Assembly (NCBI GenBank): GCA_964429275.1
Contig: CAYSBJ010000002.1
Location: 176,245 to 240,244, forward strand
Direction: 5' to 3'
From: an uncultured Pseudomonadota bacterium
GTDB lineage: Bacteria > Babelota > Babeliae > Babelales > JAUPTZ01
Length of the DNA stretch: 64,000 nt
Shown: in pieces, positions 1,983-50,076 of the stretch
Numbering within the stretch: the stretch's first letter is position 1
Layout of the letters: each line of letters starts with the position of its first letter
Program-made: the position numbers and the translations under genes
The notes under the pieces: generated by a model
Database searches by the model: none
Told to the model about the DNA's origin: nothing
Seen by the model: only the letters and a program-made list of their open reading frames with translations

Positions 1983-2252
1983 ATTTATAGTCAACGCGTT
2001 TAAAATCTTGATTTTCAAGAACCGTAAGACGGGTCATCCGCCGCCGCACCTCTGGTGCTAAGGCGTGACACGCCGAAGTATCGAAGACGGTTGCGACGGC
2101 GAGCGAAGCGTGGCCGGTGGCAATTCAGAAAGATCGCTCTTATACAATTTAACTCAATGTCCCTAATGGGGCCTGCTTATTTTGGACTTATTTGACTACA
2201 GTAGCCGTTTCAATAATTGTGTTTATTCAGAAGAATTGCCGTAAATAGAAAG

Positions 2253-2288
2253 AGTGCCTATGGGATACAAATTCCAAACATAGGCACT
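2253..2288. terminator. Stem-loop between convergent genes.
   Basis: AGTGCCTATG ... CATAGGCACT forms a perfect 10-bp stem with a 16-nt loop. Confidence 0.35.
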
Positions 2289-2303
2289 CCACTTATCAAA
2301 GTT

Positions 2304-2360
2304 AAAAAAAGCCTCTCGCGCCCGGCTATAGTTATTAAAACCGGGCACGAGAGGTTTCTA
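2304..2360. terminator. Probable bidirectional intrinsic terminator.
   Basis: An A7 run, then CCTCTCGCGCCCGG ... CCGGGCACGAGAGG (13/14 bp paired), then TTTCT. Confidence 0.5.
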
Positions 2361-2403
2361 CGCAAAAATATCTTACACTACTCTGATTCAGTTGTGAATA
2401 TGC

Positions 2404-2439
2404 CCCCGTGCCCAGCGGACTTAATACCGGGCACAGGGG
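2404..2439. repeat. Stem-loop sharing the CCGGGCAC core with the hairpin at 2304..2360.
   Basis: CCCCGTGCCC ... GGGCAC(A)GGGG, a 10-bp stem with one bulge. Confidence 0.3.
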
Positions 2440-2653
2440 CCTTACACAGCGGCTTATTATATTCTTTTACCCCACGATATGGTTTCTAGGCTTGGGTATT
2501 TTTTACTGTTTGCCGTGACAGTTAAAGGAATAACAGAAATCGCAATCACTGTGAAAAAGAGCGTTTTGATGTATGTCGAACAATTTTTTTTCATTTTAAA
2601 ACCCTTCCTTATGTATGTGAGCCATCCCCACTTATCGTTGAATATGATAACTC

Positions 2654-3697: not shown

Positions 3698-3706
3698 GGT
3701 TCTCTC

Positions 3707-4675: not shown

Positions 4676-4684
4676 GATACGTTC

Positions 4685-5797: not shown

Positions 5798-6113
5798 AGT
5801 AGTTCTTCCTTGTTGCGAAGTTGACTATACAATACACGAAATAAAAGCACCTCTCGATCAAGCTATTGTACCTGGCTCTATGGCATATAACCAAATAGCA
5901 CAGAACGGGAGATAAGAAGAATTATGCTCCTCTTTTTAGAAAAAGCAAGGAGAAATTGTGCTGCAGAAAGTATTTTGCTAGTTTTTCACCACAATTGATG
6001 GCTCCCGTTAATTTCCAATGTGTCTTCGGAGAGGCGCAATAGAGAAAAGAGGGGGTGGAGCTGTTGCGCCATTATAGAACACTCTTATCTTCTGCTCCTG
6101 CGGGCCAAAGTTT

Positions 6114-7535: not shown

Positions 7536-7614
7536 GAGAGCCTCCGAGGGTTGTAAAATAGTATGGCACGGAGAACGGTACTTGATTATGCAGGGGTTGG
7601 CAAATTATTCCAAA

Positions 7615-7648
7615 CGAAAGAGGCCCAGAATTACCCGGGCCTCTTTCG
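7615..7648 (-). terminator. Intrinsic terminator downstream of frr.
   Basis: CGAAAGAGGCCC ... GGGCCTCTTTCG forms a 12-bp stem. The T-run on the minus strand is short. Confidence 0.5.
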
Positions 7649-7671
7649 TAAAATGTATCATTCGAGTGGTA

Positions 7672-8256
7672 TTAAACCGCGCGAATATCGGTCGCCTTCT
7701 TCGCGCTCAATTCGTCAACAACTTTGATGCTGTTGTCGGTGACTTTTTGCAATGAATCGGCCAAGCGTTTAGCAAAGTCCTCTGAGATGTCGCCATCTTT
7801 TTCAAGTTCTTTTACCAAGTTTTGTGCTTCTTTGCGAATGCCGCGAACGCCAACACGGCATTCTTCGGTCTTCTTATTGAGCACCTTAACCAATTCTTCA
7901 CGACGATCAGAGCTCATTGGCGGTAATACTAAGCGGATCATTTGCCCGTCGTTTTGTGGCGTAATGCCAACATCGGAGGCAAGGATTCCTTTTTCAATGG
8001 CGCCGAGTAAGGCTTTGTCCCATGGTTGAATGGTCAACAAACGGGCATCAGGTGCGCCGAGTGTTGCTAAATCACGCAAGTTCATAACTTGGCCGTAGCT
8101 TTCCACTTTGACATCTTCGATCAATTTGGTATTCGCGCGGCCGGTACGAATGCTGGCAAGATCTTTTTCAAAATGCTTAATCGGATCTTGCATTGCAAGC
8201 GCTACAGCAGATTCAAACCCTTTAACATCACCTTCGGTAATCTTTAATGTTAACAT
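7672..8256 (-). CDS. frr: Ribosome recycling factor.
   Basis: Motifs LASIRTGRAN, LPPMSSDRREELVK and GVRGIRKEA, plus length, are typical of RRF. Confidence 0.95.
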   Translation of the reverse strand: MLTLKITEGDVKGFESAVALAMQDPIKHFEKDLASIRTGRANTKLIEDVKVESYGQVMNLRDLATLGAPDARLLTIQPWDKALLGAIEKGILASDVGITPQNDGQMIRLVLPPMSSDRREELVKVLNKKTEECRVGVRGIRKEAQNLVKELEKDGDISEDFAKRLADSLQKVTDNSIKVVDELSAKKATDIRAV

Positions 8257-8277
8257 AGAGCGTCCCTTTGTTGCGTA

Positions 8278-9153
8278 TTACTGACCAATGGCAAAACGAA
8301 CGAATCGAGCAACACGTACTGAGCAGCCGGCGTGTTTGCCGACAGCTTCGAGCATTTGCGCAATCGTTTGCTTGTCATCTTTAATGAACTTTTGGTTGTG
8401 AAGGCAGACTGTTTCGTAGAACTTGTTTAGTTTGCCTGGCAAGATCTTTTCGATGATTTGGGCATTTTTGCCTTCGCCGCGAAGCTGTTCTGCAAAGATT
8501 TCTGATTCTTTTGCGATAACTGCCTGATCTAGTTCTGATGGGTTGACACAGAGTGGCTTGGTAACCGCGATTTGCATCGCCACGTCTTTAGCCGCTTGCA
8601 CGAGCGCCGTGATATCGGCTGGGCGGTTGCCGTCTATTGCAAGTTCGACCAAGATGCCAAGTGTTGAGCCAGCGTGTACGTAACCGTTAATAACGCCGTT
8701 CGTTGTGGTCATTTTTACAAAGCGAGCTACTTTGATACTTTCGGCGATTTTAGCGATCAGGCCATCAAGAACCCCTTGGAGGGTCAAGCTGCCGCCACTT
8801 ATCGTTTCAGTCATCAGGTCAGCGACGTTGTCGGTGTTTGAAGAGAGAATTTGGTTGCAAACTGTTTGGTTGAAGTTGCGCATATCTTCGGTATTGGCCG
8901 AAAAGTCAGTTTCGCAGGCGGTTTCAACGATAGTGCCGCTCTTGAAGTCTGGGGCCACCATGACCTGAATGTTGCCATTGTTGGTAGCGTTTTCTGCACG
9001 CTTTGCGGCAACCGAGGCCCCCTTCTTACGAAGGATTTCGATTGCTTTATCAAAGTCGCCCTCAGCGTCGATGAGTGCCTTTTTGCAGTCCATCATGCTT
9101 ACTTGGGTTGCATCTCGTAGTTTTTTAATCATGTCCACAGAAATAGTAGTCAC
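8278..9153 (-). CDS. tsf: Elongation factor Ts.
   Basis: IKKLRDATQVSMMDCKKAL UBA-like N-terminus. I place the start at the GTG at 9153, preceded by AAAGGAA. The longer tracked ORF to 9333 has no EF-Ts-like sequence. Confidence 0.9.
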   Translation of the reverse strand: MTTISVDMIKKLRDATQVSMMDCKKALIDAEGDFDKAIEILRKKGASVAAKRAENATNNGNIQVMVAPDFKSGTIVETACETDFSANTEDMRNFNQTVCNQILSSNTDNVADLMTETISGGSLTLQGVLDGLIAKIAESIKVARFVKMTTTNGVINGYVHAGSTLGILVELAIDGNRPADITALVQAAKDVAMQIAVTKPLCVNPSELDQAVIAKESEIFAEQLRGEGKNAQIIEKILPGKLNKFYETVCLHNQKFIKDDKQTIAQMLEAVGKHAGCSVRVARFVRFAIGQ

Positions 9154-9366
9154 GACGTTCCTTTCATTGAATTTGCCGTCCAGCACCGGGTTTTCCACGG
9201 TCAGCGGGCGGTTTATAGGTTGCCGATCTTGTTTAATCGTATACACTGCTCTTTGACAAACAATCGCTGAAAAAGTAGGCTTAGCGTCACGATCATGATT
9301 AGAGAAGTATAAGGAAATCAAAATAAATAACAAGTTTCACCATGATCAGTAGCACAAGGAGCACGT

Positions 9367-9633
9367 ATGCCAGTACCAAAAATGAAGGTTTCTCGTTCCC
9401 GTCGGAATAAGAGATCTGCCAACAAATTCATCAAATTAAATCCAATTTCAGAGTGTCAAACCTGCAGAGCGCCTCTTGCTTCGCACCAAGTTTGCCAAGG
9501 TTGTGGCTACTACAAGGGTTCAAAGATCCTTAGAACTAAGTATGAGCGTCTTCATGATCGCGGTACTGCCCGATCTGCTCAGTATGCCGCTGCATCAGAA
9601 AATGCAATGCGCGCAAACGAATCTGCTGAATAA
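9367..9633 (+). CDS. rpmF: Ribosomal protein L32 with a C-terminal extension.
   Basis: MPVPKMKVSRSRRNKR N-terminus and CxxC...CxxC zinc-ribbon cysteines. Confidence 0.9.
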   Translation: MPVPKMKVSRSRRNKRSANKFIKLNPISECQTCRAPLASHQVCQGCGYYKGSKILRTKYERLHDRGTARSAQYAAASENAMRANESAE

Positions 9634-9657
9634 TTCTTAAGTTCACGTACGTGTTGG

Positions 9658-10659
9658 GTGAGTGGTATGAGCAAAAAAGCCCATTATGTGGCCGTTGACG
9701 GCATGGGGGGCGACTTTGCGCCGCACGCGGTGATTGAAGGGGTCCTAGAAGCAGCAAAGGCCGGTGTGCCGATTATGCTTTTTGGGCCCGAAAACAAGCT
9801 TGTCCGCTATTTGAGTGAGCAATACCCGGAATGGGAATCGCTTGGCATTAAGGTGGTACAGGCGGGTGAAATCATTGGCATGGCCGAAGAGCCGGTGTTT
9901 GCTGTGCGCAAAAAGCCGGATTCCTCCTTGGTAAAAGCGGTTCAGTCCATTGCCGATGGGAAGACTCATGCGGTGTTTTCTGCTGGTAATTCTGGCGCAT
10001 TGATGGCCGCTGCCTTGTTCATACTCGGCCGACAGGAAGGGATTGATCGGCCTGCGATTGCTGGGTTGCTGCCGACTCTTAAGGGGTCGGTTATCGCTCT
10101 TGATTTGGGAGCAAATGTCGATTGTCGACCGCATTACTTGCAGCAATTTGCAGAAATGGGTTCGCTCTACGCTGAAAAGTTACTTGCTATTTCTGAGCCG
10201 CGCATTGGTTTGTTGTCAAACGGAGCAGAGCGAGGCAAAGGAACTGTGCTCGTTAAGCAGGCGGCCGCCTTGCTTGAAGAATCAAGCCTTAACTTTATTG
10301 GAAACGTTGAGCCAATCGATGTGATTAATCACTGCGCTGATGTGGTGGTCTGTGATGGTTTTGCTGGCAATGTCATGCTCAAGACTATGGAGGCTACGGC
10401 TTCTATGATTCGCCATTCGCTGGCCCAAGAACTTTCAAACGGTGGTCTCCTGCGCGATACGCAAGATGGCGATAAAGTACGGGCCAAGCTTGAAGAAGCT
10501 CTTGTTTCGCTTGATAATCGCTTTGGCGAAGCTGCCCAATCAGGGGCTCGGTTGTTGGGGGTTAACGGCATCGTTGTTGTAGGCCATGGTGCATCGCATG
10601 CGGTGTCGATTAGTCGTTCCATTCGCAAGGCGTACAACATAATTTTAGCGGAAAAGTAG
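9658..10659 (+). CDS. plsX: Phosphate acyltransferase PlsX. The start may instead be the ATG at 9667.
   Basis: VAVDGMGGDFAP motif and the conserved position directly after rpmF. Confidence 0.9.
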   Translation: MSGMSKKAHYVAVDGMGGDFAPHAVIEGVLEAAKAGVPIMLFGPENKLVRYLSEQYPEWESLGIKVVQAGEIIGMAEEPVFAVRKKPDSSLVKAVQSIADGKTHAVFSAGNSGALMAAALFILGRQEGIDRPAIAGLLPTLKGSVIALDLGANVDCRPHYLQQFAEMGSLYAEKLLAISEPRIGLLSNGAERGKGTVLVKQAAALLEESSLNFIGNVEPIDVINHCADVVVCDGFAGNVMLKTMEATASMIRHSLAQELSNGGLLRDTQDGDKVRAKLEEALVSLDNRFGEAAQSGARLLGVNGIVVVGHGASHAVSISRSIRKAYNIILAEK

Positions 10660-11504: not shown

Positions 11505-11753
11505 ATGGTATTTAGAAAAGAAGATACGGCTGCAAAAGTGATTGCCATTATCGAAGAAAAACTGGCTAAATCACCCGGCACGGTGACGTTGGATGATTCT
11601 TTTGAGAAGCTTGGGGCAGATTCCTTGGACTTGGTTGAACTCATTATGAGCTTTGAAGAGACTTTTGGTATCGAAATCAAAGATGAGCATTCAGATAGAA
11701 TAAAGACGGTGGGTAATGTCGTGGATTATGTTCACGCAATGCGCACAAAGTAA
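11505..11753 (+). CDS. acpP: Acyl carrier protein.
   Basis: LGADSLDLVELIMSFEETFGIEI contains the DSL phosphopantetheine attachment site. The protein is 82 aa. Confidence 0.9.
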   Translation: MVFRKEDTAAKVIAIIEEKLAKSPGTVTLDDSFEKLGADSLDLVELIMSFEETFGIEIKDEHSDRIKTVGNVVDYVHAMRTK

Positions 11754-11759
11754 GAAGCA

Positions 11760-11791
11760 AAAAGGGCACGTATAATTACGTGCCCTTTTTT
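11760..11791. terminator. Bidirectional intrinsic terminator.
   Basis: An A-run, then GGGCACGTA-TAAT-TACGTGCCC (perfect 9-bp stem), then T6. Confidence 0.7.
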
Positions 11792-11866
11792 AGCGAATGT
11801 GCCCTTATATGTATTCAAGAGATTTTTTCCCATCTAGTCTACTTTTGTGCTATCGTCACCCGCAAC

Positions 11867-13297
11867 CTAGAACGAGGCCATAACTTTAAACCAGCCGCCC
11901 ATGAGTGAGGCAGTTGCTTTGTTAAAGCCGGCAGTAAAGCTGAGGCCACCCCCAAAAGCGACGGGGAAACCATAAAATTCTATGTTATAACCGGCACCAA
12001 AAAGGCCACGGCCGCCAATTTGGGCAGGGCTTGTGGCCGCTGAAGTATTGAGCATATCGGTAGTCAAAAGTCGGTGATTCAGTAGGATTGTTTCGTGCAA
12101 ATAAGTGCCAGTGCTTGCGGTGTTGGTAAAAGCAGTGCTGGTGTCATATAGTGGTGACACGATAGCGTACGTGCCTTCTGGCCAGTTCAAGATAGTAAGA
12201 CGTTCTTCTTGGCGAGCAAAGAGCTCGTATCCTAGGTTAAAAGTAAAACTTTGCCAGGTGAGGGCGAGCATGCAAGAAACATCGGCAGCGTGTAGTGCAG
12301 AACGATTGACCGGTTGATAGAGAACGTTTGGAAGAGGGAAGACTCCGGCCACGTTGACTTGAGCGCCAAGTAAGTAGGGCGAGCCATAGGGAAGGCTGCC
12401 ATCGTCATCAATCAAGCCCAGGAGTCGATTTTCTGAGCCACCAAATATGTACTGGTAGTTAAATTGAGTGATGAGCTCGGTGGTTAGCCCTTCATACTGG
12501 CCGATGGTTGCTCCTGCTTCAATACCAGCAATAAATTTGTGGTGGTCGTATGCTGTGCTATGATAGTCGAATAAGTAAGTTTGTACTGGCTTTTTTTTAA
12601 GTGTGATGCCGGCGCCACTGTATACTGTGAGGTAGTTGCTTTCGTTTTCTAATGCACTATAGCGTAGAGAAACATTCAGCGGTCCACAGACTGTGTGGCG
12701 ATGTTTGCCAAATAACCCGTAGGCAAGAGGTGCCTGGATCGGGGTAATTTGTGAAAAAGCTCCAGAGAAGTACTCATCCATTATTTTAGTGCCGCCGGCT
12801 TGGGTTAGCGTCGCAGTGGTATAGTACAGTGGCATTTGGAACGAGAGTGCTATGCCGGGAAAGGAGTTTTTTGCGTCAAAGAACGCGCTGAATGTTGCAC
12901 CGATATTAGTAAAATCCGGGGTCAGGGTGAGTGTGGCGCTGCTCTCAGTCGCGCTGAGTGATGGATTGTGTACGATGGCGCTGTAGGGTAGCACGCTGGT
13001 GCTTTCCTGATTAAAGCGGTCGCTTGCTATTTGAATTGTCTCTGAATCCTTGAGTGTGAGGTGCCGAGCAATAGCCTCAGTATTAATCGCTTTATTTACA
13101 AAGGGCACGACTTGCACGCTCAGACCAATGGGGTTCCCAATGTCGGTAGTGGTGTGTGTGTGCCAGAGCGCCGTTTCTTGACAGCGTTGGGCATCAAGGT
13201 GCGGTAGTGAGAAATAGGTTTTTCCTCCATATTCAAGTACGGCATGACTGCTTGCAACAGAAGAAAAAAGGAAGGCGATAAGTAAGCGTGTGTTCAC
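11867..13297 (-). CDS. Beta-barrel outer-membrane protein, a divergent member of the local paralog family.
   Basis: Signal peptide. Family blocks DEYFSGAF, PLPNVL and FNLGYELFARQEERLTI. C-terminal aromatic residue in ...WFKVMASF. GTG start with an AGGAG site 17 nt after the stop of the giant gene. Confidence 0.7.
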   Translation of the reverse strand: MNTRLLIAFLFSSVASSHAVLEYGGKTYFSLPHLDAQRCQETALWHTHTTTDIGNPIGLSVQVVPFVNKAINTEAIARHLTLKDSETIQIASDRFNQESTSVLPYSAIVHNPSLSATESSATLTLTPDFTNIGATFSAFFDAKNSFPGIALSFQMPLYYTTATLTQAGGTKIMDEYFSGAFSQITPIQAPLAYGLFGKHRHTVCGPLNVSLRYSALENESNYLTVYSGAGITLKKKPVQTYLFDYHSTAYDHHKFIAGIEAGATIGQYEGLTTELITQFNYQYIFGGSENRLLGLIDDDGSLPYGSPYLLGAQVNVAGVFPLPNVLYQPVNRSALHAADVSCMLALTWQSFTFNLGYELFARQEERLTILNWPEGTYAIVSPLYDTSTAFTNTASTGTYLHETILLNHRLLTTDMLNTSAATSPAQIGGRGLFGAGYNIEFYGFPVAFGGGLSFTAGFNKATASLMGGWFKVMASF

Positions 13298-13314
13298 TAA
13301 AAATCTCCTGGTTA

Positions 13315-16300
13315 TTATGCGGCAGGTGCCGCTGCATGAGGAACGATGGCCGGCGCCAGCGGCTTGCTCGTGCTGGTGGTATTGCTCATTGCTGTTGGTG
13401 TAGTTTGTGCCATTATTTTGTCGCGACTAAATGTTGGAACCGCTGGAACGCTCACGGTGCTTACCACAGAATTCATCTTTGCTTTGAGCTCAAGTGTTGC
13501 AGCTTTTACATTTTTTTGTCGTGTCAGTGAGTCGAGTAATGATGCTGCTTTACTTTGAATAGTGGCGTCATCAATGATCCCCAATTTCTTTGGATGATTC
13601 TTTATGTAAGCATATAACAGCAGGGCTTTTGCAAGCCCATCTGTTGGAATGTCTATGGCTAATGTTTCTGGAAGTAGCCCCTCTGCTGAAAAAACAGCAG
13701 TACGGAACTCTACATCTTTTTTGCGACGATTTCTATTGCGATCCAATATGCCAAGCGTGTGTTCTTTTAAGATACTTAATGCTCGTGTGCAGTAGGTGCC
13801 AATCTTGGCCGGGGATTGTAGGTCTTTGCTATTCTCGGTCAGATATTTCGTGTCTCGATCTGCCTTTTGTAAGTATTTCAAGATGGCTGTCGCACGCATT
13901 TGCGCATTCTCATTATCGCTAATGCCAAGATTAGTTGGATTGTCGACTATGTATTGATAGAGCTGAATAGCTGATTGAAGCTGCGTTGCTTCCATACCAG
14001 AAACGATGCTTTCTGGTTTGTTTTTTATATCTGGCAGCAATCCTTCTGTTGAGAATATTGCGCTATGTAGATCACCTGGCTCTTTTATTTTTGTTCGGTC
14101 GGTAGTGTTTAAGGCGTTTATGATTTCCGGTGTGAAGGTATTCCATATTTTTTCACTTAAGGCAATCGCTTTATTTGTGCCGGATAAAATGCTGCGCGCT
14201 TTAGCGCAGAAATCTCCTATGAGGGAAGCATCTGCAAGATATTGGGGGGCAGTTTTGAAAAATTTAATATAGCGTGCAATACGAGCTTCATCATCGACAA
14301 CTCCTGACGGATCTTGGTCGCCGTCAATGCTATCAGTAGACTGTGCTTTAAGGGCTTTGAGAATTTGCGCAATTTTATTTTGTATGTGAAGACTGTTGCT
14401 AATTCCTATATTGCCCCAGTTGCTCTTATCATTTAGCCATGAGTAGAGCGTAATTGCTTTCTTCAAATTTTCTGAATCGATATTTTGGGCTATTTTATCA
14501 GCGGGTGGGAGAAGGCCTTTCGCTGAAAATATAACTGTATGGAGAGGACCAGGTCCTTTTATTTTTGTTCGATCAGTAGTTGTGATATTGTCGATGACTG
14601 CGGGTATAATAGTATTCCAAATCTTCTGCCTGATTGCTTTTAATTTAGTAGTATTTCCTAAAAGTTCCAAAGCTTTTTCACAAAAAAGGCCTATTTTATC
14701 TGGCTTGCTCAACCAGTAAGCGCCGGCGTTGAAAAATTTCATGTAACCCTTGACGCGCGCATTTTCGTCAGTGATGTTTTCGCTTTTGTCGTCATAATCG
14801 ATGTTCATATTTTCAAGTTCTTCTTCGGTTGGCTCATCTTCTTCATTATCTTCATCATCACTCTCTTCAGAGTTTTTCTTTTTACCTTTCTTTTTCTTTT
14901 TTTTTACATCATTTTCAGAGGTGCCTGCTTTGCCAGTTGCCTGTGCAATTTTAAGATCGGTAAGTTCTGCTTGCATTACTGCCATTTGGGCCGCATTTTG
15001 CGCAATGTTCGCAACATCTTGCCCGCCCCCCATTATACCGGGCATCATACCCATTCCCATACCAGGCATCATTGACATACCAGGCATCATTCCCATGCCC
15101 ATACCAGGCATCATAAATGGTGATACCATGGGCATTCCCATGGCGTTATTAGTTGCATTTTGAGCTCCCTTGCCTGTGTTTCCATTGAGCATAGATGCCG
15201 TTACCATACTTCCGGCCATTGGAAGCATCATGCCATTTACATTTATCATGCTAGCCGCGGGATCTACATCGCCGTCATACACTTCATCTTGAGCACGAGT
15301 AAGCTGTTTAGATGGGTCGCTTGTGAACAGGTCAACGATAATTTTTATCCGCGCTTGTGACTGCGAGTCCATGCTATATTTTCGTGCGTTCTCAGAGAGG
15401 TTTTTGTAATACTCAAGCATCTGCTCCTTTTGAGCTTTCCATTGTGGCTTATGTATATCACTTGGCAAGCGATTGATGCCGAGTACGGTGTTGCGGAACG
15501 CGTTTATCAGAGGGGTTTTGTCCATTATTCGTCTTAATTCGAGGAATCTTTTGAGCGCTCCCTTTTTTAAAAGAGACTCGTTTTGATCAAGTCTTTTGCA
15601 CATGCCGTCGAGAATTGTTATTGCAGCGTAAAAATTGGCCGTAGAGTCAGAATGAGTTTTCTTATAACCTTCCTTGTAAATGTAGTTATATATTGAAATT
15701 TGTTTGGTTGTCCATCCGTTGTCGCGCAGCGAAGCTTCGGTTATTTGCGGGCCGATATCTTTGACCGGATCATCATTCCCTATCATTATTTGTAAATCAA
15801 TTGGTATGTATCCTTGTGTTTTTTTAGTAGTAGGGTCCGGGGTGATGAAAACGTATGACTCAACGTCTTCATAATTTACTGAGGGGTCGTCTGACATTTC
15901 TTTGAGTTTATTGAGGACTTCAAGGATATCATTTACTCCTTTGAGGAATGGATCTACCGCCGCTGTTTTTGAAGTGACACCGAACTCGTTGGCGTTATCT
16001 TTGAGCATGTTGTAAAGGTTGAGCGCTTGATCTAGTCCATCTGGTGGGATGTAGCTAAATTTGAATTGAGTCGTAGTGTCGGGGAATAATCCCTGCGCGG
16101 AGAAGAGAAAATTGCGCACTTCTGGGTTTGCGTTAACTGCGGCCCGCTCTTTTTTTGTGTCTACCTGTTTTGCGACGGAGGCGCAGAAGTTTCCAATTTT
16201 TTTCTTATTCAAAAGATCGGCAGCGTATTGTTGTACGTAGGTCATGAGTTGTTTGGCGGCTGCAGCATCGCTACCATCAATGGTTGCAGAAGTTTTAAGT

Positions 16301-19300
16301 GCGTTTGTAGTTTCTTCAACTTGTGCTTTTGCTTCCGCTTGTGTTGGTGCGGCTTGCCCATCGGCAGACGGCTTAGCAGTTGTTGTCTGCGCATTGAGCG
16401 CTTGGAAAAATGCATGCCCTTTAGCAATAAGATTTTTTACGAGATCATCTTTCTTGTATCCTAAATCATCATCATTTTTTTTCATGCATTCAAACAGAGA
16501 TAGCCCTGCTTGAATAGTTATTCCATCAAATTGTGTTTGGTCTGGTTTGCTAATATCAACACCATCCGGCAGACAAAATATACCGGCGGGTGAAAAGAAA
16601 GTATTGTAGAGTTCTTTGTGGTCACCAATAAGTTTTCGATTGTCCTGCTCTTTAAGTTGAGCGTAAATACTCATTGCGCCTTGATCATAGGTCTTGAGTC
16701 CTTTGAGATTTAAAAAGCTTGCTGCTAGTATGGTATTGAGATTTTTTGCTTTTTCTGGCAGAGCCTCTGCGGCTGCTTTAATGTCTCGGTTCAGTTTATT
16801 AGTAAGATCATTAATTTGTGTGCGAATTTCTTCAAAGTCTGGTCGTTCTGCGTAGTTCAAATCTTTTGGATTGTTTCTTATTACTTCTAAAAGGCTTTGG
16901 GTCGCTTTGCGTGCCTCACTGTCAAGGCCAGTCGGTATGGTTTTTATAAAAAAGCCATCTTCATTAAAAAAGAGAGCATTTGCTTCCCAATTAAACCCAA
17001 TAAAGGTCCGAGACTGGTTGTCATCGAGCATCTTTGTTACTTGTATGGCATCAGTTGTGAAAGCATCAACAAGTGTTTGTTGATCTGTTCCCGAGAGTGT
17101 ATCGATCTTTTGTGTCGCTGCGGTAATAGCAGTAGTGTTCTCTTTGAGTGTTCTCAAAAGTGCAAGCTCAGACTCATTAGTACCTATTTGTTTAAATAAA
17201 TCACGTAATGCGGTCAAAGGTTGAATCAGTGTGGTGTTGCCATTTTCAATGGCAAGCAATTTATCTATAGCTCGGTATCCATCCTGACTTATGCTATAGC
17301 GCATTTTTTCATCTGAAATGGCGCGAGCATTTGTAAAGAAGTCGCGTGGTATATTGAGAAAAGCAGGAATATAGAGAGCGCTTCGCACAATGGCACTATT
17401 TTGTATTGTTTGTGCGATGTTAGGGCGATCGTCTTGATTGAGAACGACAGAGAAAGCGCTTAATTGTTTTGCGAGATTTGCAAGGGTCTTATCAGAAGTA
17501 AAAAGGTCTGTTTTGAGAGTGAAATCGGCGGCGGTGCTTGGTTGGTACAAGGCAAAAAGAAGCAGGTAAAAGGGAGTAAGGATTTCTTGTTCGATCAAGG
17601 TTTGTTTGGTTGTTGCAAACCGTACTTTTGTGGTTGCTTCAATTTGCGTGCGGATGCCTTTTTGCAGGATGAAGAAAAGGTTGGTGGCCATTACGTCTGC
17701 AGGCTTAAGTGTTTTCTGGATTGAAACTGGTATTGTTTCCGGTTCGATAGCCGTTTCTTGTGACAAAAGACAGGTGTACATCTTTGCATTGCCGACAATA
17801 AGATCTCTATTCCCTGATAACACTTTGTTAAACGCTCCAATGACAATGCTATAAGCTTCGATGGGCGACATATTACTTGAAAAGAGAGTGCTATTACTTG
17901 CCAAAACGTCAGAAAAAGAAACTTTTTTACCATCGTCGGTAACTGGCGCTGCAGACAAGGCGAAGGTGATATTGTTCTTTGCAGCGATTTCAAGGACAAT
18001 CGCTTTAATAAAGTTGTTGTATTGCGCAATTTGGTTGTAAACCGCTTGCTCCGTTGCTGAGCCAATAGCTAGGTCGTTTGTCTGCTTAGTTAAGCTTTCA
18101 ATTGTGTTAGTGCCATATGACTTTTTAATGCCAAAAGTGACAGAGTTTGCGTTGAGAGTAGTGAGCAGGGTGGCCATAACATTAATGAAAGTATCGCGAT
18201 CGTGATTTGATAGTGTGTTATGTGTTAGTTGTGCTTTTATGCCATCAAAAAACTCGGAAGGAAGCCAAAGGATAGGAAGAAAATAGCTTTCTGTCGTACT
18301 GCTAAGGAGATTTGAAGTCGGCGTGCTGAGCGCCTGCGTTAAGAGTACGTTCATGCGCATGAGGTAGGCGCTTAGAAGTTGTATGTTGCCCGGTTGAGCG
18401 AAAAATTTGGGGTTAAAAATCTTTTTTTCTGTTGTTGAGAGGTCGGTTGGCTGAGCGTATAGGGCTTCGGCAAGCTCGCGCGCCATCTCATGAAGTTCGT
18501 CAGCCGCAGGCTCTTTGCCTGCGACAAAAGATAGTATTTCATCGCTTCTTTTTTTGATGCGGTCAGCTACAACTTGCTCGGCACTTTTTTGTGCAATATT
18601 TTGTGCTGTGGTTGCAAATTCTTTAAGGAGGGTTTGGCCTTCCGGAGAGAGCATGCTAGAAATGGCAGGGAGATCTAGCTTATCAAGTGCTTTTTGTAAG
18701 TCGAGTACTGCGGCTTGGTTTTGGTCAAAAATCCCTGCTTTGTCAGCTTTCTGAAGGCTTTTTACAAGCGAAGTAAAGTGAGTAGCCGTACCAGAAGCGG
18801 TGTTGGGAACTTCGTAGGGGTTCATGCGTTCGCTTGCGCTGCTTGCTTTCTGGAATTCCGTGCGTGCCTCTTGGCCTGCGAGAGAAAGAGCTATGTCATG
18901 GTAGTTAGCGTAGCGGTCGCGGGCGTTGACATACTGATTTTTGAGGGTGGGGTTCTCTTCTATTTTAAGCGGGGTCCACGCACTGCGAGTGAGGGTGAAG
19001 TAAAATTTTTTGCCTTCATCTTCTGCTTTGTTAAATTGCTCGCTGGTTAGGGCTTGTTGGAGTTGTTCTCTGCTTGGTGCGGCGTATGCTACTGCCAGGA
19101 ATGCAGCTTGTAGCTCGGGATTGGCGGCAATGTCGTCGGAGCGGTTCTTATGGGTGAAGCCGGTCGAGATAAACTTGGTCATTTCTTCAAAAGCATTTGC
19201 GCAGGTGGTCGGAGTGCTTATGGCCGGGAGGAGTAATTTGAGTGAGCTAAAAATGTTTGCTTGAACGTCATTTAGTCCGTTGATGCTGGTGGGCATTGGT

Positions 19301-19512
19301 GGAACCGGGGGCCGACCAGCTTTGCCGGCAGAAAAATCAGCTGCTTGTAGTGCTGGCGGTGCCGTAACTGCCGAGGTTAAAGCCTGCTTTTGTGTGGCGC
19401 GGCGTTGAAATTCACTAGCGTTAAGAGCGTCTATTCCTGAGAGAGGTTTTGCCGCCAATACATCGATAGGGGGGGTGATAAAAATAAGGACTAAAATGGC
19501 GAGTAAGTTCAT
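13315..19512 (-). CDS. Giant (2065 aa) secreted repeat protein of unknown function.
   Basis: Uninterrupted 6.2-kb ORF. Signal peptide MNLLAILVLIFITPPIDVLAA. Internal module repeats and low-complexity Met/Gly, poly-Lys and acidic tracts. Confidence 0.8.
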   Translation of the reverse strand: MNLLAILVLIFITPPIDVLAAKPLSGIDALNASEFQRRATQKQALTSAVTAPPALQAADFSAGKAGRPPVPPMPTSINGLNDVQANIFSSLKLLLPAISTPTTCANAFEEMTKFISTGFTHKNRSDDIAANPELQAAFLAVAYAAPSREQLQQALTSEQFNKAEDEGKKFYFTLTRSAWTPLKIEENPTLKNQYVNARDRYANYHDIALSLAGQEARTEFQKASSASERMNPYEVPNTASGTATHFTSLVKSLQKADKAGIFDQNQAAVLDLQKALDKLDLPAISSMLSPEGQTLLKEFATTAQNIAQKSAEQVVADRIKKRSDEILSFVAGKEPAADELHEMARELAEALYAQPTDLSTTEKKIFNPKFFAQPGNIQLLSAYLMRMNVLLTQALSTPTSNLLSSTTESYFLPILWLPSEFFDGIKAQLTHNTLSNHDRDTFINVMATLLTTLNANSVTFGIKKSYGTNTIESLTKQTNDLAIGSATEQAVYNQIAQYNNFIKAIVLEIAAKNNITFALSAAPVTDDGKKVSFSDVLASNSTLFSSNMSPIEAYSIVIGAFNKVLSGNRDLIVGNAKMYTCLLSQETAIEPETIPVSIQKTLKPADVMATNLFFILQKGIRTQIEATTKVRFATTKQTLIEQEILTPFYLLLFALYQPSTAADFTLKTDLFTSDKTLANLAKQLSAFSVVLNQDDRPNIAQTIQNSAIVRSALYIPAFLNIPRDFFTNARAISDEKMRYSISQDGYRAIDKLLAIENGNTTLIQPLTALRDLFKQIGTNESELALLRTLKENTTAITAATQKIDTLSGTDQQTLVDAFTTDAIQVTKMLDDNQSRTFIGFNWEANALFFNEDGFFIKTIPTGLDSEARKATQSLLEVIRNNPKDLNYAERPDFEEIRTQINDLTNKLNRDIKAAAEALPEKAKNLNTILAASFLNLKGLKTYDQGAMSIYAQLKEQDNRKLIGDHKELYNTFFSPAGIFCLPDGVDISKPDQTQFDGITIQAGLSLFECMKKNDDDLGYKKDDLVKNLIAKGHAFFQALNAQTTTAKPSADGQAAPTQAEAKAQVEETTNALKTSATIDGSDAAAAKQLMTYVQQYAADLLNKKKIGNFCASVAKQVDTKKERAAVNANPEVRNFLFSAQGLFPDTTTQFKFSYIPPDGLDQALNLYNMLKDNANEFGVTSKTAAVDPFLKGVNDILEVLNKLKEMSDDPSVNYEDVESYVFITPDPTTKKTQGYIPIDLQIMIGNDDPVKDIGPQITEASLRDNGWTTKQISIYNYIYKEGYKKTHSDSTANFYAAITILDGMCKRLDQNESLLKKGALKRFLELRRIMDKTPLINAFRNTVLGINRLPSDIHKPQWKAQKEQMLEYYKNLSENARKYSMDSQSQARIKIIVDLFTSDPSKQLTRAQDEVYDGDVDPAASMINVNGMMLPMAGSMVTASMLNGNTGKGAQNATNNAMGMPMVSPFMMPGMGMGMMPGMSMMPGMGMGMMPGIMGGGQDVANIAQNAAQMAVMQAELTDLKIAQATGKAGTSENDVKKKKKKGKKKNSEESDDEDNEEDEPTEEELENMNIDYDDKSENITDENARVKGYMKFFNAGAYWLSKPDKIGLFCEKALELLGNTTKLKAIRQKIWNTIIPAVIDNITTTDRTKIKGPGPLHTVIFSAKGLLPPADKIAQNIDSENLKKAITLYSWLNDKSNWGNIGISNSLHIQNKIAQILKALKAQSTDSIDGDQDPSGVVDDEARIARYIKFFKTAPQYLADASLIGDFCAKARSILSGTNKAIALSEKIWNTFTPEIINALNTTDRTKIKEPGDLHSAIFSTEGLLPDIKNKPESIVSGMEATQLQSAIQLYQYIVDNPTNLGISDNENAQMRATAILKYLQKADRDTKYLTENSKDLQSPAKIGTYCTRALSILKEHTLGILDRNRNRRKKDVEFRTAVFSAEGLLPETLAIDIPTDGLAKALLLYAYIKNHPKKLGIIDDATIQSKAASLLDSLTRQKNVKAATLELKAKMNSVVSTVSVPAVPTFSRDKIMAQTTPTAMSNTTSTSKPLAPAIVPHAAAPAA

Positions 19513-19627
19513 GCCGGTGTTTCCTCTTACAAATATGAGAGAGATGCTTATCGCGCATGGTAAAAATAAATGGCGAGCGAGCTCAATGGTTTAGAACAAC
19601 TCTATTCGTATACAGTTTGTGGCCTTT

Positions 19628-21118
19628 TTAAAATATATGGCACAGTGAGCAAGAGAAGCCGTAGCCTCCAACGCCGAAAGTCTGTGCGCCGGTGAAGGAA
19701 TAATAGCCACGAAGCTGCAATGTGCTGTGGGAGAATTTTGGCAGTGGCACGCAGCGAGCGGAGAAAGAGACGGTGTGTGTCATTTGCATCGGCGTTGCAG
19801 CAGCATCAAAGTAAAGCATGTCGCTGGTAAGTGAGCTGTTGCTCCCGAAAGCGCTATCATTTGCTAAGTCAAAAATGTCGTACGCTGAGCCTGCAATTTG
19901 GCTATACGAGAGCTTAGAAAGTGCATATACACCAGCTGGCCAGCTCGAAAGTCCCGATACTTTCTCTTCGCTGGCACGGCTAAAGCGGTATTCAACAGTG
20001 CCAGTGAGTGCTTTGTACTGTGCGTTGAGACCGACATTAAGTTCAATACTGGTGCCGGGAGTAACGCTGACAACTTGGGTAAGAAGGTTTATAAGAGGGA
20101 AGAGGCGACGTGCATTTTGTTTGCCGCCGAGTGCGTAGCGTGCAAAGGCAACATCACTGGTGTCGAGTAAAAAACTAGGCGAACGGACCTCTTGTGTGCT
20201 TACACCAGCACGTATAGTAGCATCCGCAGAGCAACCAACAGTAATTGCGTTTAGAGAGAAGAAATTAGTGCTGGCGCGCCCATGAAGCCCAAATAATGGA
20301 TGGCCAGCACTTCCCAGCGTTGGCTCGAATAAGTACACACCATGTGATCGGCTGGTGGTTGGTAGTACGGCAAGGAGGCCAACTTGCACTACAACTTCGT
20401 CGCTTATGTTGGGCGTCAGGAGGCAGAGGAGTGTGATGTCCGCTAGACCTTGTATGGATTGCTTGTTGGTGAGTTTACCGTATTGAAGTGCATCTTGCTG
20501 GTCAGGACTGTTGCCTGCCTCTTGCTTGAGAGCGCCAGTAAAGAAGTCCATGACGTTGTAAAGGGTGCCATTAACTGTTTCGCTGGTATTGTTGGTAGTT
20601 GCGAGACCCATTACATGGTTTTTCTGCATCCATGGCATGATGGTATGAACTGTTACCCATTTGTCGATGCAGACAGAATTCGTAAAAATAACGCCGTATT
20701 GCTCAATATACGGGCTAAAAGTGATAGTTGCTTGAAGTGGGGTAGCAGCCGGGTTGCTCCAATTGTTAGCGTTTGCCGAATTATGAATGATGTTTTGCGG
20801 GGTCAGGCTATGTGGCTTTGTTAGGTCAGCAGTGACGCGCAAGAAGGGGCAAATATTGCCGCTGTTGGTATCATAAAAACCGAAGTAATTTCCGAGCGTT
20901 TTCTTTGCAGTGCTCTTCCAATAAAAACCTTCAAGGCCAACGGCGGTTTGCAATGAGTGGCTTGTGGGTTTTTTCCCTTGATTAAAAGGAAGGCTGCTTA
21001 TGCTAAGCCAGAGAGGGGCGTTTGGTGATTTATAAAAAGTTTTTGAAGTAGGGGGTGTGGCGGCGTTTGCGGCTATGGCGAGAAGAGTGAGAAAGAAGAG
21101 TGGTTTTACTATGCGCAT
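19628..21118 (-). CDS. Beta-barrel outer-membrane protein paralog (divergent).
   Basis: Start placed at MRIVKPLFFLTLLAIAANA, preceded by AAGGAG. Blocks MDFFTGAL and FEPTLGSAGH. C-terminal ...LCHIF. Confidence 0.7.
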   Translation of the reverse strand: MRIVKPLFFLTLLAIAANAATPPTSKTFYKSPNAPLWLSISSLPFNQGKKPTSHSLQTAVGLEGFYWKSTAKKTLGNYFGFYDTNSGNICPFLRVTADLTKPHSLTPQNIIHNSANANNWSNPAATPLQATITFSPYIEQYGVIFTNSVCIDKWVTVHTIMPWMQKNHVMGLATTNNTSETVNGTLYNVMDFFTGALKQEAGNSPDQQDALQYGKLTNKQSIQGLADITLLCLLTPNISDEVVVQVGLLAVLPTTSRSHGVYLFEPTLGSAGHPLFGLHGRASTNFFSLNAITVGCSADATIRAGVSTQEVRSPSFLLDTSDVAFARYALGGKQNARRLFPLINLLTQVVSVTPGTSIELNVGLNAQYKALTGTVEYRFSRASEEKVSGLSSWPAGVYALSKLSYSQIAGSAYDIFDLANDSAFGSNSSLTSDMLYFDAAATPMQMTHTVSFSARCVPLPKFSHSTLQLRGYYSFTGAQTFGVGGYGFSCSLCHIF

Positions 21119-21240
21119 GGGGCTCCTTTTTTGGCGGTAGTAAAGCAGTTTTGTCTGCTTCTGCGCAATCATATAAATAAAATAAGTAGAATGACTTTAT
21201 TGCAGTCGCAGGTAAGGTGGTATAGGTAAAACGTTATAGG

Positions 21241-21321: not shown

Positions 21322-23322
21322 TTAGAACGAAATACCGACCTTCGCCCACACTTTGTAGCCTTCAAGCGCTGAATTGCGGCTCGACGCTTGGAATTCGCCT
21401 TGACCGCCAATACCAACTACCATTGGGAAGTTGCCATTGAACTTGTAACTTACGCCACCAACAACGCTGTGTGTCATTTGGTTGCTAGTTACGCCAGGTG
21501 TGCTGGTAGTGTTGTAACGAACAGCCAATTTAGCTGCTTGTGCAACGTTACCACCTTTTAAGCTGCTGGCGTTAGTAGAGTCAGCAAGCTGTTGTACAAG
21601 GTTTGAGGATGATGAACCAGCAGCTTGAATTGGCCCGTTCAAGCTGGTAAATGCACCTGGATAAACGTTGTCTGATAGGCCATTCCCTGCAAGTGCCGTG
21701 CTTGGCAAAATATAAGGAGTGCCGCCAGCATCACCGTTAGAACCGATTACGTAACCATGTTTGGTTGCTTGTGAAAAATCGTCTGCATAATCGTCAGGAG
21801 ACAGGCCACCAGAGTCGTCACCGATGAAACCACCATTGTGGTTTACGGTTGTGCCGCTTACGTATGAAGTACCACCGACCACGTAGTGTGTTGTGTCACC
21901 AACTGTAGCTGGCACTGCAGTGTTCATGCTGTAGTGTGGGTGTGCAAGAGCAAACTTATCATTTGTCCATGCGCCAGACTTCATCGTCACAACATCTTGT
22001 TGATGCCAGTAGAAGTTGTAACCAAGATTTGCAGAGAAGTTTTTATACTTTGCGCAAAAGCCAGCCACTGCATCTACTTGGTTGCGTGGGGTTACATCAT
22101 GGTTTACGGTGAGTACGTTTGCTGCTGGTTGTACACCAGTTACGCCGTTTTGCATAACCAAGCGATACGAACTTGCTGGCAATACAACCAAGTTAGTGAG
22201 GTCGTAAATACCCATTGTGCGCATTTCGGTCGCTTTAAAGAAGTACTTCCAGTTAACAGAGAGGTCGAAGCCTATGCATACGCCTTTTTTGTTATAAAGA
22301 TCTGCATGTACAAATCCTTGTGCGCCAGCACCTACGTGCCCACGAGCACCGTAGAGGGGCTCAAAAAGACGTGTCATAGTCGGCTTGTTGCTGGTAGGTA
22401 TTTGCACCGCAGCGCCAATGCCAAATGACAAGGCGTTCATTTTAGCAAACTTAAAGCCGTAGTTCATTGCAATTTCAAGATCAGCAAGACCGGTTGCTGT
22501 TGCATAGGTATTGTTGATGAGATTCTTGCTAAGTGCGGCTTGAATTACGTGCAAATTGCTGCCTGTTCTTGCAACACTTACTGCGCCATTGAAGTAGTCT
22601 TTCAGTGTTGATCCTGAAGGGCCGTCTTCTGCTGGAATAGATGTTGCATAGGTGTTTGTTGTGTTTGCTCTCATGCTGCTGCGTACTTGAACAATTGGCG
22701 CACGTACGGAGAACGAAAGGCCCTTGAATAAAGCATCAAGTGATTGGTGCCAGCCAAGATGCGCGCCATATTCCTGACGAATTGGAGACAGAGCTACCGT
22801 GCCGTAGGCTGGTACGCGGTTTGATGCAGTATCAGCGGTAGATCCGTCCTCTAGGAGTCCAGCTGATTTAGCAAGGCTTGAACCGTCTGAGTTTGGCGAC
22901 TGTATGACGTTTGTGTTATAGAGAGCACTTCCCACCGTCGATGCGGTTGGTACGCCAGCAGTTACCGTAATAGCGCCAGTAGTACCCATACCAAACAGAT
23001 ATGCAAGATCGGCAGAATTGCTTGTTTGAGTATAGAATGGGGTTGCTGTTATGCAAGCGCCAAGTTTATTGCAGTTCTTTTTCTTCGCGACGCGATCTCT
23101 TCTGCCAGCTTTAACGTATTCTTGGTCTTTAGCTTTGCATTCTATTTCGCAGTCCTTTTCTGCCTTGCACGATGGATGGCTGCCGTTTACCCATTCCATG
23201 CCAGCGTTCGCAAGCGCATCGCGGTGTGCGATAAACGTCTTACCATTGCTGAGTGCAGCGTCTGCACAGGCAGTACTTGCAAGCATTGCTGCAAGCAGGC
23301 CTTTTATTAGTTTGTTCTTCAT
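21322..23322 (-). CDS. Beta-barrel outer-membrane protein paralog, the largest copy, with a Cys-rich insert.
   Basis: Signal peptide. Blocks KTFIAHRD, ATPFYTQTSNSADLAYLFG, KDYFNGAV, FEPLYGARGH, QPAANVLTV. C-terminal VWAKVGISF. Confidence 0.75.
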   Translation of the reverse strand: MKNKLIKGLLAAMLASTACADAALSNGKTFIAHRDALANAGMEWVNGSHPSCKAEKDCEIECKAKDQEYVKAGRRDRVAKKKNCNKLGACITATPFYTQTSNSADLAYLFGMGTTGAITVTAGVPTASTVGSALYNTNVIQSPNSDGSSLAKSAGLLEDGSTADTASNRVPAYGTVALSPIRQEYGAHLGWHQSLDALFKGLSFSVRAPIVQVRSSMRANTTNTYATSIPAEDGPSGSTLKDYFNGAVSVARTGSNLHVIQAALSKNLINNTYATATGLADLEIAMNYGFKFAKMNALSFGIGAAVQIPTSNKPTMTRLFEPLYGARGHVGAGAQGFVHADLYNKKGVCIGFDLSVNWKYFFKATEMRTMGIYDLTNLVVLPASSYRLVMQNGVTGVQPAANVLTVNHDVTPRNQVDAVAGFCAKYKNFSANLGYNFYWHQQDVVTMKSGAWTNDKFALAHPHYSMNTAVPATVGDTTHYVVGGTSYVSGTTVNHNGGFIGDDSGGLSPDDYADDFSQATKHGYVIGSNGDAGGTPYILPSTALAGNGLSDNVYPGAFTSLNGPIQAAGSSSSNLVQQLADSTNASSLKGGNVAQAAKLAVRYNTTSTPGVTSNQMTHSVVGGVSYKFNGNFPMVVGIGGQGEFQASSRNSALEGYKVWAKVGISF

Positions 23323-50037: not shown

Positions 50038-50076
50038 AAGCGCTCCTCTATATCGCATACGCGATTTAAAAACTCC

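Follow-up and report, generated by a model that had tools for sequence, protein, structure and literature searches.

What is the relationship of an exported bacterial protein of more than 2000 residues, with no membrane anchor of its own, to the outer-membrane β-barrels between which it is encoded? The question is raised by a 64,000-nucleotide (nt) stretch of DNA (contig CAYSBJ010000002.1, positions 176,245 to 240,244), here termed the window. On its minus strand, a gene for a protein of 2065 amino acids (aa), the giant, is followed by a gene for a 476-aa β-barrel and preceded by a gene for a 514-aa barrel of the same family. As judged from its closest sequence relatives, the source organism is an uncultured Candidatus Dependentiae (TM6) bacterium of the amoeba-parasite type. 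Close orthologs of the 476-aa barrel (92% and 67% identity) are annotated as Candidatus Dependentiae bacterium, and the only three GTDB species representatives with the barrel are all metagenome-assembled genomes from rivers or lakes, the two of these that are named to phylum being Candidatus Dependentiae bacterium. The Dependentiae are a widespread phylum of protist parasites with very few cultured isolates.

A first-pass annotation of the window had proposed that the giant and the 476-aa barrel constitute a dedicated, translationally coupled pair in which the barrel exports the giant. The coordinates, strand, and lengths of the two genes, including the GTG start of the barrel gene, are as that annotation gave them. 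The giant and its flanking barrels are probably linked in function, because the giant lacks an anchor of its own, lies between the two most specialized members of the barrel family, appears to be translationally coupled to one of them in most lineages, and shares their narrow phyletic range.

Conservation of the Gene Order

Related lineages were found through contigs carrying orthologs of the 476-aa barrel at decreasing identity and then through contigs carrying distant relatives of the giant. In 12 of 12 related lineages, a giant open reading frame (ORF) is located upstream of an ortholog of the 476-aa barrel (Table 1), and no counterexample to this neighborhood is found among them. By BLAST, the downstream ORFs are orthologous to the 476-aa barrel itself rather than to one of its paralogs. 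The conservation of the two genes as neighbors, which had been set beforehand as a refutation test of the annotated pair, is thus seen in every lineage, and gene order and strand are kept down to 25% identity for the giant and 43% for the barrel. Recurrence in 12 independent lineages argues that the arrangement is not due to chance.

Table 1. Length of the giant and spacing between the giant and 476-aa barrel genes in the related lineages
Lineage	Giant	Junction
L001	2069 aa	17-nt gap
L003	cut by contig end	ATGA overlap (4 nt)
L005	2012 aa	1 nt
L007	1994 aa	ATGA overlap (4 nt)
L008	2254 aa	24 nt
L009	1777 aa	ATGA overlap (4 nt)
L010	1771 aa	2 nt
L018	at least 1838 aa, cut	ORFs overlap or abut
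L019	cut	124-nt gap
L012	2031 aa	98-nt gap
L011	1858 aa	one small opposite-strand ORF between
P0027 contig	1651 aa	two small opposite-strand ORFs between

Nine lineages reach far enough upstream to reveal the preceding genes (L005, L007, L008, L009, L010, L011, L012, L016, and L017), and all nine display the order ~650-aa barrel, ~505-aa barrel, giant, ~476-aa barrel. The gene directly upstream of the giant in these nine lineages encodes an ortholog of the 514-aa barrel (38–51% identity). With a second barrel upstream in each case, the conserved unit is at least a triad. The proposal of a dedicated pair therefore stands insofar as the giant and the 476-aa barrel are neighbors, but it missed the upstream barrel, which is equally conserved.

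The gene that follows the 476-aa barrel is acpP in most lineages. It is replaced by ABC_sub_bind genes in L010 and by fab genes in L011 and L012, and no acpP follows the barrel in L018. The downstream neighbor has thus changed several times with the giant and the barrel still adjacent, which argues that the block has outlasted local rearrangements. The giant family itself is rare. When 1.84 billion cluster representatives were scanned exhaustively with HMMER, only 13 relatives emerged, all of which are long proteins or fragments, and scans of a genome collection and of metagenomes returned three species representatives and two loci, respectively; the co-occurrence statistics therefore rest on the 12 lineages.

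The Junction between the Giant and Barrel Genes

In the window, the junction reads ...GCA TAA TAA CCAGGAGATTTTTA GTG, with 17 nt from the first stop codon to the GTG and an AGGAG located 7 nt before the GTG; the TAATAA, the 17 nt, and the AGGAG agree with the first-pass annotation. No terminator is found between the giant and barrel genes, and the first one is located after the barrel gene. The 17-nt gap is also present in the closest relative, L001, and altogether eight of the lineages have either an overlap of the giant stop and the barrel start or a gap of no more than 24 nt. The occurrence of ATGA overlaps and of gaps of 1–24 nt across many lineages points to selection for coupled expression. 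From the sequence of these junctions, the giant appears to be translationally coupled to the 476-aa barrel in most lineages, and we infer that the two genes are co-transcribed.

Architecture of the Giant Protein

The sole segment of the giant with a 19-residue Kyte-Doolittle hydropathy above 1.6 comprises residues 1–24, which are followed by VLA|A and resemble a signal peptide, in agreement with the annotated Sec signal. The giant orthologs all begin with similar hydrophobic N termini. Beyond this segment, the giant contains no lipobox, no further hydrophobic or transmembrane segment, no β-signal, and no conserved C-terminal sorting tag. A lipoprotein anchor was dropped from consideration because there is no lipobox.

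The orthologs align over ~1400 N-terminal residues with 25–32% identity. Compared with distant orthologs, identity is 20–40% up to residue ~1500 and then falls to 6–20% with many gaps. The repeated helical modules described in the first-pass annotation are real: an iterated hidden Markov model (HMM), seeded on three obvious C-terminal repeats, locates six copies of a ~127-aa module in the window giant, with the signature R..IG.N..L...FFS..G[IL][LF]...P.GL...AG..LY..I..NP..[LF]G. Relatives contain three to eight copies in total, and the scanned relatives carry between zero and three C-terminal copies.

The low-complexity tracts noted in the annotation are likewise genuine. The most distinctive is a Met/Gly tract, which is found at the same position in seven aligned orthologs, where it comprises 71–136 aa with 21–33% Met, 16–36% Gly, and at most ~8 charged residues. 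A similar tract is present in L019, and one of only ~30 aa is present in L018. The position and composition of the tract are conserved despite turnover of its sequence. A copper-binding Met motif was considered and dropped because the tract is mostly Gly and Met and lacks His and Asp. The conserved stretch of ~30 aa that follows is, as judged from its sequence, probably an amphipathic helix. Beyond this stretch, the orthologs contain charged or variable linkers, modules, and nonconserved Ser/Thr/Pro-rich tails.

An AlphaFold2 model of residues 241–1440, based on an alignment of 14 rows, is entirely helical, with a mean pLDDT of 79, 974 of 1200 residues at or above 70, and a pTM of 0.48. Such a result would be anticipated if confidently folded helical domains follow one another along the chain with an uncertain mutual arrangement. 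A Foldseek search of the PDB with this model yields generic α-solenoids only (FANCI, the MUN domain of Munc13, importins, and vinculin) at TM-scores of 0.06–0.16, which were not accepted as a sign of relationship. A search against viral predicted structures returns nothing at E ≤ 0.001. In Pfam and NCBIfam, no match is found for the giant, for four pieces of ~500 aa, or for three orthologs, even at E ≤ 1, and there is no meaningful match for 26 module copies. The statement of the first-pass annotation that the giant lacks TPS, autotransporter, RTX, Ig-like, and T9SS C-terminal domains is borne out in these two collections. Sequence and profile searches of the PDB with the giant alignment, the C-terminal 544 aa, and the module profile give chance-level matches only (E about 1).

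Two further features of the giant family were observed. The third central module and the three C-terminal modules of the window giant each contain one semiconserved Cys in an IGxFC context (residues 1110, 1611, 1769, and 1908; window positions ~16183, 14680, 14206, and 13789), and the same context is present in several orthologs. By analogy with chlamydial envelopes, unpaired Cys residues in an exported giant could form intermolecular disulfides. In addition, the giant ortholog of L008 (L008 positions 3212–9976) has in its C-terminal part (residues ~1560–2254) an extra, Cys/Thr/Gly-rich and probably β-rich insert of ~270 aa after the Met/Gly tract, as well as a run of 24 Gln residues near the C terminus and long Pro/Ser/Thr-rich stretches.

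The 476-aa Barrel and Its Paralogs

The 476-aa barrel has a signal peptide ending in SHA|V and a C terminus of ...KVMASF. Its orthologs form 13 clusters with 43–92% identity and a mean column identity of 63%. The AlphaFold2 model (pLDDT 68, pTM 0.70) contains long antiparallel strands, including a hairpin with strands of 22 and 19 residues. Signal peptide, antiparallel barrel, and C-terminal aromatic β-signal, the features generic to BAM-dependent outer-membrane barrels, are thus all present. No POTRA-like domain is visible in the model, in which residues 20–58, before the first strand, adopt no secondary structure; together with the lack of a POTRA or Omp85 match in Pfam, this agrees with the N terminus described in the first-pass annotation.

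Four motifs are invariant across the orthologs: WHTHTTTD (residues 45–52), SDRF (residues 92–95), LPY (residues 103–105), and DDDGS (residues 297–301). The first three fall in low-confidence, nonstrand segments of the model (residues 8–54 and 81–115). Such invariant motifs near the N terminus fit, in terms of the model, a plug or a partner-binding element. The His and Asp clusters of these motifs might just as well belong to a metal site or a catalytic site.

A Foldseek search with the barrel model returns outer-membrane barrels only, which sets the fold class and not the family. FapF ranks first (5o67, E 3e-9), with TM-scores of 0.57–0.68 when normalized to the target and 0.37–0.41 when normalized to the query, an rmsd of 7–9 Å, and 7–9% identity. 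Further fold matches include COG4313, the autotransporter β-domains of EstA, EspP, and AIDA-I, FadL-type channels, TodX, OmpG, and omptins. For 26 members of the barrel family, no sequence relation is found in Pfam, NCBIfam, or PDB chains, with chance-level E-values of about 1 for searches with the barrel and barrel-family alignments.

An all-versus-all BLAST comparison of the window ORFs places the 476-aa protein in an array of eight paralogous genes encoding 476–666 aa (positions 11867–35724), all of which are on the minus strand. As the first-pass annotation had stated, the 476-aa protein is the most divergent of these, with 23–27% identity to the seven others (E 1e-7 to 1e-13), and the 514-aa member is almost as divergent. 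All eight paralogs have signal peptides, and paralogs and orthologs alike end in Phe. Both barrels that flank the giant have 1:1 ortholog groups of their own, distinct from the other paralogs. On these sequence comparisons, the array represents a family of outer-membrane proteins that has not been described and that has 1:1 orthologs in related genomes.

A Proposed Anchoring and Display Complex at the Outer Membrane

We assign a probability of roughly 0.4 to the reading that the giant forms, together with the two flanking barrels, an outer-membrane complex for anchoring and display. The three genes would represent a vertically inherited envelope gene block that is specific to one clade of Candidatus Dependentiae. 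Its central product would be a Sec-exported, anchorless, all-α protein with four regions: a conserved N-terminal part of ~1400 residues with three modules, the Met/Gly tract with the ~30-aa helix, a charged linker, and a fast-evolving part comprising one to three C-terminal modules and the Ser/Thr/Pro-rich tail. The giant would be co-expressed with the 476-aa barrel, with the gene for the second specialized barrel preceding its own, and the three proteins would associate noncovalently, with the barrels keeping the giant at the outer membrane. The Met/Gly tract and the following helix are the best candidates for a segment located in or passing through a barrel lumen. The conserved N-terminal part would then reside on the periplasmic side, and the variable C-terminal modules would be exposed on the outside of the cell, potentially in contact with the eukaryotic host. 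Gene structure, coupling signals, the conserved gene order, the export signal, the all-α modular fold of the giant, the barrel fold, and the lack of any known family are observed; the physical interaction, the topology, the surface exposure, and the host contact are all features that we infer.

Several properties of the proteins are consistent with this complex. At the sequence level, the conserved N-terminal part and the fast-evolving, copy-variable C-terminal part fit two parts that are located in different environments. In RcsF bound to OmpA/C/F and in LptE bound to LptD, a disordered linker of the partner occupies the barrel lumen, with domains on both sides of the outer membrane. By analogy with the linkers in autotransporters or RcsF-OmpA, an uncharged, flexible Met/Gly tract and a helix would be well suited to a barrel lumen. 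The partners in RcsF-OmpA/C/F and LptE-LptD are small lipoproteins, unlike the 2065-aa giant with no lipobox, and threading of the giant is a proposal. The fold matches of the barrel include channels with polypeptide in the lumen (FapF, EstA, EspP, and AIDA-I), which we count in favor of the complex. It is doubtful, and put forward tentatively, that the triad is a previously unknown type of display/anchoring system in which the charge-free Met/Gly linker and helix would fix the giant within, or lead it through, one or two dedicated barrels that are not of the Omp85 type.

A number of observations weigh against the complex. The junction is looser in L012 and L019, and small opposite-strand ORFs separate the giant and barrel genes in the distant lineages L011 and the P0027 contig (Table 1). 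Loose gaps and inserted small genes in these four lineages indicate that tight coupling is not essential; the tight coupling claimed in the first-pass annotation is retained in the window and its closest relative, in the three lineages with ATGA overlaps, and in the two with gaps of 1–2 nt, but it does not extend to these four. The whole region (rpmF-plsX-acpP and tsf-frr) is syntenic in these genomes, so adjacency is weaker as proof of function and may partly reflect shared ancestry. The family is, as far as the sequence searches reach, confined to a narrow clade (13 representatives and three GTDB species representatives). The fold likeness of the barrel is generic, extending to barrels of 12–14 strands with query-normalized TM-scores of ~0.4 or less, and the model, which is of moderate confidence, fixes neither lumen size nor strand number. 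Finally, it is purely a conjecture that the Met/Gly tract threads a barrel.

The alternative that survives best, although we consider it unlikely, is that there is no functional link. In that case, the barrels would be ordinary nutrient porins or FadL/COG4313-like uptake channels in a tandem array, and the giant would owe its place there to descent, being an unrelated protein that is either a secreted effector or periplasmic and is perhaps exported by type II secretion. Eight tandem paralogs do look like a general outer-membrane protein family, the fold matches include the uptake channels FadL, TodX, OmpG, and COG4313, and TM6 parasites depend on nutrient import (PMC4776705); the general synteny of the region and the small genes between the giant and barrel genes in two lineages also speak for the absence of a link. 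Such an arrangement fits less well with the overlapping or closely spaced junctions in many lineages, with an adjacency that survived changes of the next downstream gene, and with the identity of the flanking barrels, which are the two most divergent, specialized members of the family and have a phyletic range about as narrow as that of the giant.

Comparison with Known Secretion and Tethering Systems

By analogy, the logic of an exported giant with a dedicated barrel resembles that of known systems. In two-partner secretion (type Vb; FhaB/FhaC and ShlA/ShlB), as at the present locus, a very large Sec-dependent exoprotein is encoded beside a dedicated, co-expressed barrel. Unlike these exoproteins, the giant has no N-terminal TPS domain (PF05860), is all-α instead of a β-helix, and is flanked by two barrels. 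The TpsB partner in these systems is a 16-strand barrel of the Omp85 superfamily with periplasmic POTRA domains; no ShlB, POTRA, or Omp85 match is found in 26 barrel-family members at E ≤ 10. FapF/COG4313, the best structural match of the 476-aa barrel, is a 12-strand channel that passes unfolded polypeptide and has an N-terminal plug element. In contrast to FapF, the 476-aa barrel displays no sequence-family signal, is ~200 residues larger, has no fap genes nearby, and would have a helical substrate of 2065 aa. Classical autotransporters (type Va) are represented by the fold-level matches to the β-domains of EstA, EspP, and AIDA-I, in which the lumen holds an α-helical or linker segment of the passenger. 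In autotransporters, passenger and 12-strand β-domain (PF03797) share one polypeptide. At the present locus, a stop codon and a ribosome-binding site divide the giant ORF from the barrel ORF, PF03797 is not matched, and the candidate barrel segment of the giant is internal and not C-terminal.

Other systems show less resemblance. No usher (PF00577), chaperone, or pilin match to Pfam is found in the block, as would characterize chaperone-usher secretion, and the giant is all-α. No T9SS C-terminal sorting domain is matched in Pfam or NCBIfam, and the C termini of the giant orthologs are unrelated to one another. RTX substrates of type I secretion are marked by Gly/Asp-rich nonapeptide repeats, a C-terminal signal, and the absence of a Sec signal; the giant has no RTX match, and it has an N-terminal signal peptide of the cleavable type. 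A TamA/TamB-like pair was dropped, given that the giant is helical and not a β-taco and that no Pfam family match is found. Every membership test for a known system was negative, with the exceptions of FapF, for which the query-normalized TM-score is only ~0.4, and the generic barrel test. Consistent with the first-pass annotation, Pfam and NCBIfam place neither the giant nor the barrel in any known family of adhesins, S-layer proteins, autotransporters, or ushers, nor in a TPS, RTX, or T9SS family. Both in sequence and in fold, the barrel family, the ~127-aa module, and the N-terminal region of the giant are without described counterparts, and no description of the giant or the barrels was found in the literature on Dependentiae (outer-membrane proteins and proteomics) or on Met/Gly tracts.

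These comparisons bear directly on the proposal that the 476-aa barrel, possibly together with the 514-aa barrel, is a new outer-membrane channel that exports the whole giant to the surface or host in a manner similar to two-partner secretion or FapF. In its favor are the conservation and coupling of the pair, the Sec signal of a giant that has no anchor, and the host-facing look of the variable C-terminal modules, the poly-Gln run of L008, and the Ser/Thr/Pro-rich tail; moreover, the best fold match of the barrel is a polypeptide transporter, followed by autotransporter barrels. That match is generic, however, and no TPS, POTRA, Omp85, autotransporter, or Fap family signal accompanies it. We know of no precedent for an all-α passenger of 2065 aa among energy-independent outer-membrane translocators; the known ones move unfolded, β-rich passengers, whereas the giant is all-helical and folds confidently in the model. 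Full secretion through the barrel is harder to accept because the giant is a well-folding all-α protein and the defining features of TPS, autotransporter, and Fap systems are absent. Type II secretion could provide another way out for folded proteins, and its components, including two gspD copies, are found in every TM6 genome studied (PMC4776705). Export of the giant by the barrel, as the first-pass annotation had it, is thus not upheld and is improbable.

A structural role has also been considered. In Thermotoga, Omp-α/Omp-β represents an exported α-helical structural protein that is genetically paired with a porin-like barrel. Similar to Omp-α/Omp-β and the OmpM/SlpA tethers, the giant is a helical exported protein paired with a barrel in a lineage with no Lpp, Pal, or OmpA. 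It differs from Omp-α, OmpM, and SlpA in showing no match to the SLH or other wall-binding domain that such tethers join to a coiled coil and/or a barrel, in having helical-bundle modules and not a single coiled coil, in being approximately five times longer, and in its variable C terminus. In a published survey, Dependentiae had neither Lpp nor Pal, OmpA, or OmpM, the four types of outer-membrane tether that are known (bioRxiv 10.1101/2021.05.31.446380), and unconventional envelope proteins are therefore to be expected there. That the giant is a periplasmic scaffold, a helical strut on the barrels that replaces these tethers, would agree with this absence, with the presence of an exported α-helical protein and porin-like barrels in one block, with a conserved N-terminal and presumably periplasmic barrel segment that could be a docking site, and with the dark-staining periplasmic material of another Dependentiae species (PMC6561590), yet it has little likelihood given that no SLH, OmpA_C, LysM, or other wall-binding domain is matched in the giant or the barrels in Pfam, that the model contains helical bundles and not one long coiled-coil rod, that a fast-evolving, copy-variable C terminus is unusual for an internal strut, and that a family restricted to one clade is not a phylum-wide answer to the tether question.

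The locus provides a well-delimited lead in a poorly understood phylum, with a narrow distribution and uncultured hosts. The Dependentiae envelope has been described as degenerate (bioRxiv 10.1101/2021.05.31.446380; PMC4776705), and the giant and two barrels offer an entry point to how the outer membrane of these bacteria holds together and how their many proteins with signal peptides reach the host. If the barrels do anchor or pass an all-α protein of 2000 residues, the known modes of outer-membrane display and translocation would be extended. A display/anchoring triad, if real, would be a combined envelope strut and host-contact organ in a parasite with no classical outer-membrane tethers. 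Three new families, namely the barrel family, the giant N-terminal region, and the ~127-aa module, are now defined and can be searched for elsewhere, and the Met/Gly tract is an unusual bacterial low-complexity region under clear positional selection.

Features and Genomic Surroundings of the Locus

The features of the locus are collected in Table 2. The surrounding genes are those of an ordinary chromosome: rpmF, plsX, a gene for a TPR protein, acpP, tsf, frr, ftsK, genes for a Mur ligase and a class I tRNA synthetase, dnaB, and ruvC.

Table 2. Positions of the genes, protein regions, and sequence signals of the locus in the window
Feature	Positions	Strand	Remarks
666-aa barrel-family paralog, first gene of the conserved four-gene order	21322..23322	-	signal peptide; C-terminal ...GISF; 1:1 orthologs (37-54% identity) at the same position and strand in 9/9 lineages with enough upstream DNA
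Divergent 514-aa barrel-family paralog, directly upstream of the giant; candidate second partner	19628..21172	-	C terminus ...CHIF; no Pfam match
115-nt spacer separating the 514-aa barrel and giant genes	19513..19627	-	AGAGGAAA 8 nt before ATG; no terminator-like site reported
Giant gene, 2065 aa, ATG start; predicted Sec-exported all-α modular protein	13315..19512	-	
Giant signal peptide, residues 1 to ~21, cleavage near VLA|A	19450..19512	-	from hydropathy
Three central ~127-aa helical modules (residues 788-907, 913-1035, 1066-1184)	15961..17151	-	iterated module HMM, domain E-values 1e-29 to 1e-31; helical in the model
Met/Gly-rich, nearly charge-free low-complexity tract (residues ~1427-1497)	15022..15234	-	only such tract in the window
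~30-aa stretch directly after the Met/Gly tract (residues ~1498-1527)	14932..15021	-	in all aligned orthologs; presumed helical, outside the modeled region
Lys run, then acidic low-complexity linker (residues 1537-1585)	14758..14904	-	variable among orthologs
Three C-terminal module copies (residues 1595-1722, 1752-1882, 1892-1996)	13525..14730	-	module HMM
Ala/Ser/Thr/Pro-rich C-terminal tail	13318..13515	-	no conserved sorting motif; C termini differ in every ortholog
17-nt junction: second TAA, AGGAG ribosome-binding site, then barrel GTG	13298..13314	-	
476-aa specialized outer-membrane β-barrel, GTG start	11867..13297	-	AlphaFold model; signal peptide; C-terminal Phe
Strong hairpin terminator (14-bp stem) after the 476-aa barrel gene	11759..11790	-	common to the convergent acpP gene

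The G+C content is 41.5% at positions 14001–18000, which comprise most of the giant gene, versus 46–48% in the flanks. The low value may reflect a composition rich in Lys, Asn, Ile, and Thr or a foreign origin, both of which are conceivable.

Within the barrel array, an ORF on the minus strand with AAA-ATPase_like and PD-(D/E)XK (PDDEXK_9) domains interrupts the series of paralogs (positions 30527–32101). AAA_14/DUF4143 ATPase genes are also found just beyond the 476-aa barrel in L012 (positions 14461–15701 of that contig, adjoining the barrel) and in L008 (positions 15620–16873, a few genes off), and selfish ATPase genes are possibly recurring around the locus. Four paralogous ABC substrate-binding proteins (PF04392) are encoded at positions 915–4675 and 25583–26548 of the window, and the gene for one of these lies within the array of barrels. 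L010 has four PF04392 genes (positions 11546–15560) inserted between the barrel and acpP.

Three tandem BrnQ paralogs (PF05525, branched-chain amino-acid transporter) with 58–69% mutual identity are located on the plus strand at positions 47531–51330, which fits nutrient scavenging. Large ORFs of 622, 832, 473, and 370 aa (positions 42090–43958, 55757–58255, 6114–7535, and 4685–5797, respectively) have no Pfam match, and the 473-aa ORF is conserved in L001 and L002. Finally, the 351-aa, TTG-start ORF for EF-Ts on the minus strand (positions 8278–9333) is probably overextended at its 5' end: the orthologs in related loci comprise 284–301 aa, and the EF_TS domain begins at residue 133 of the 351-aa ORF.

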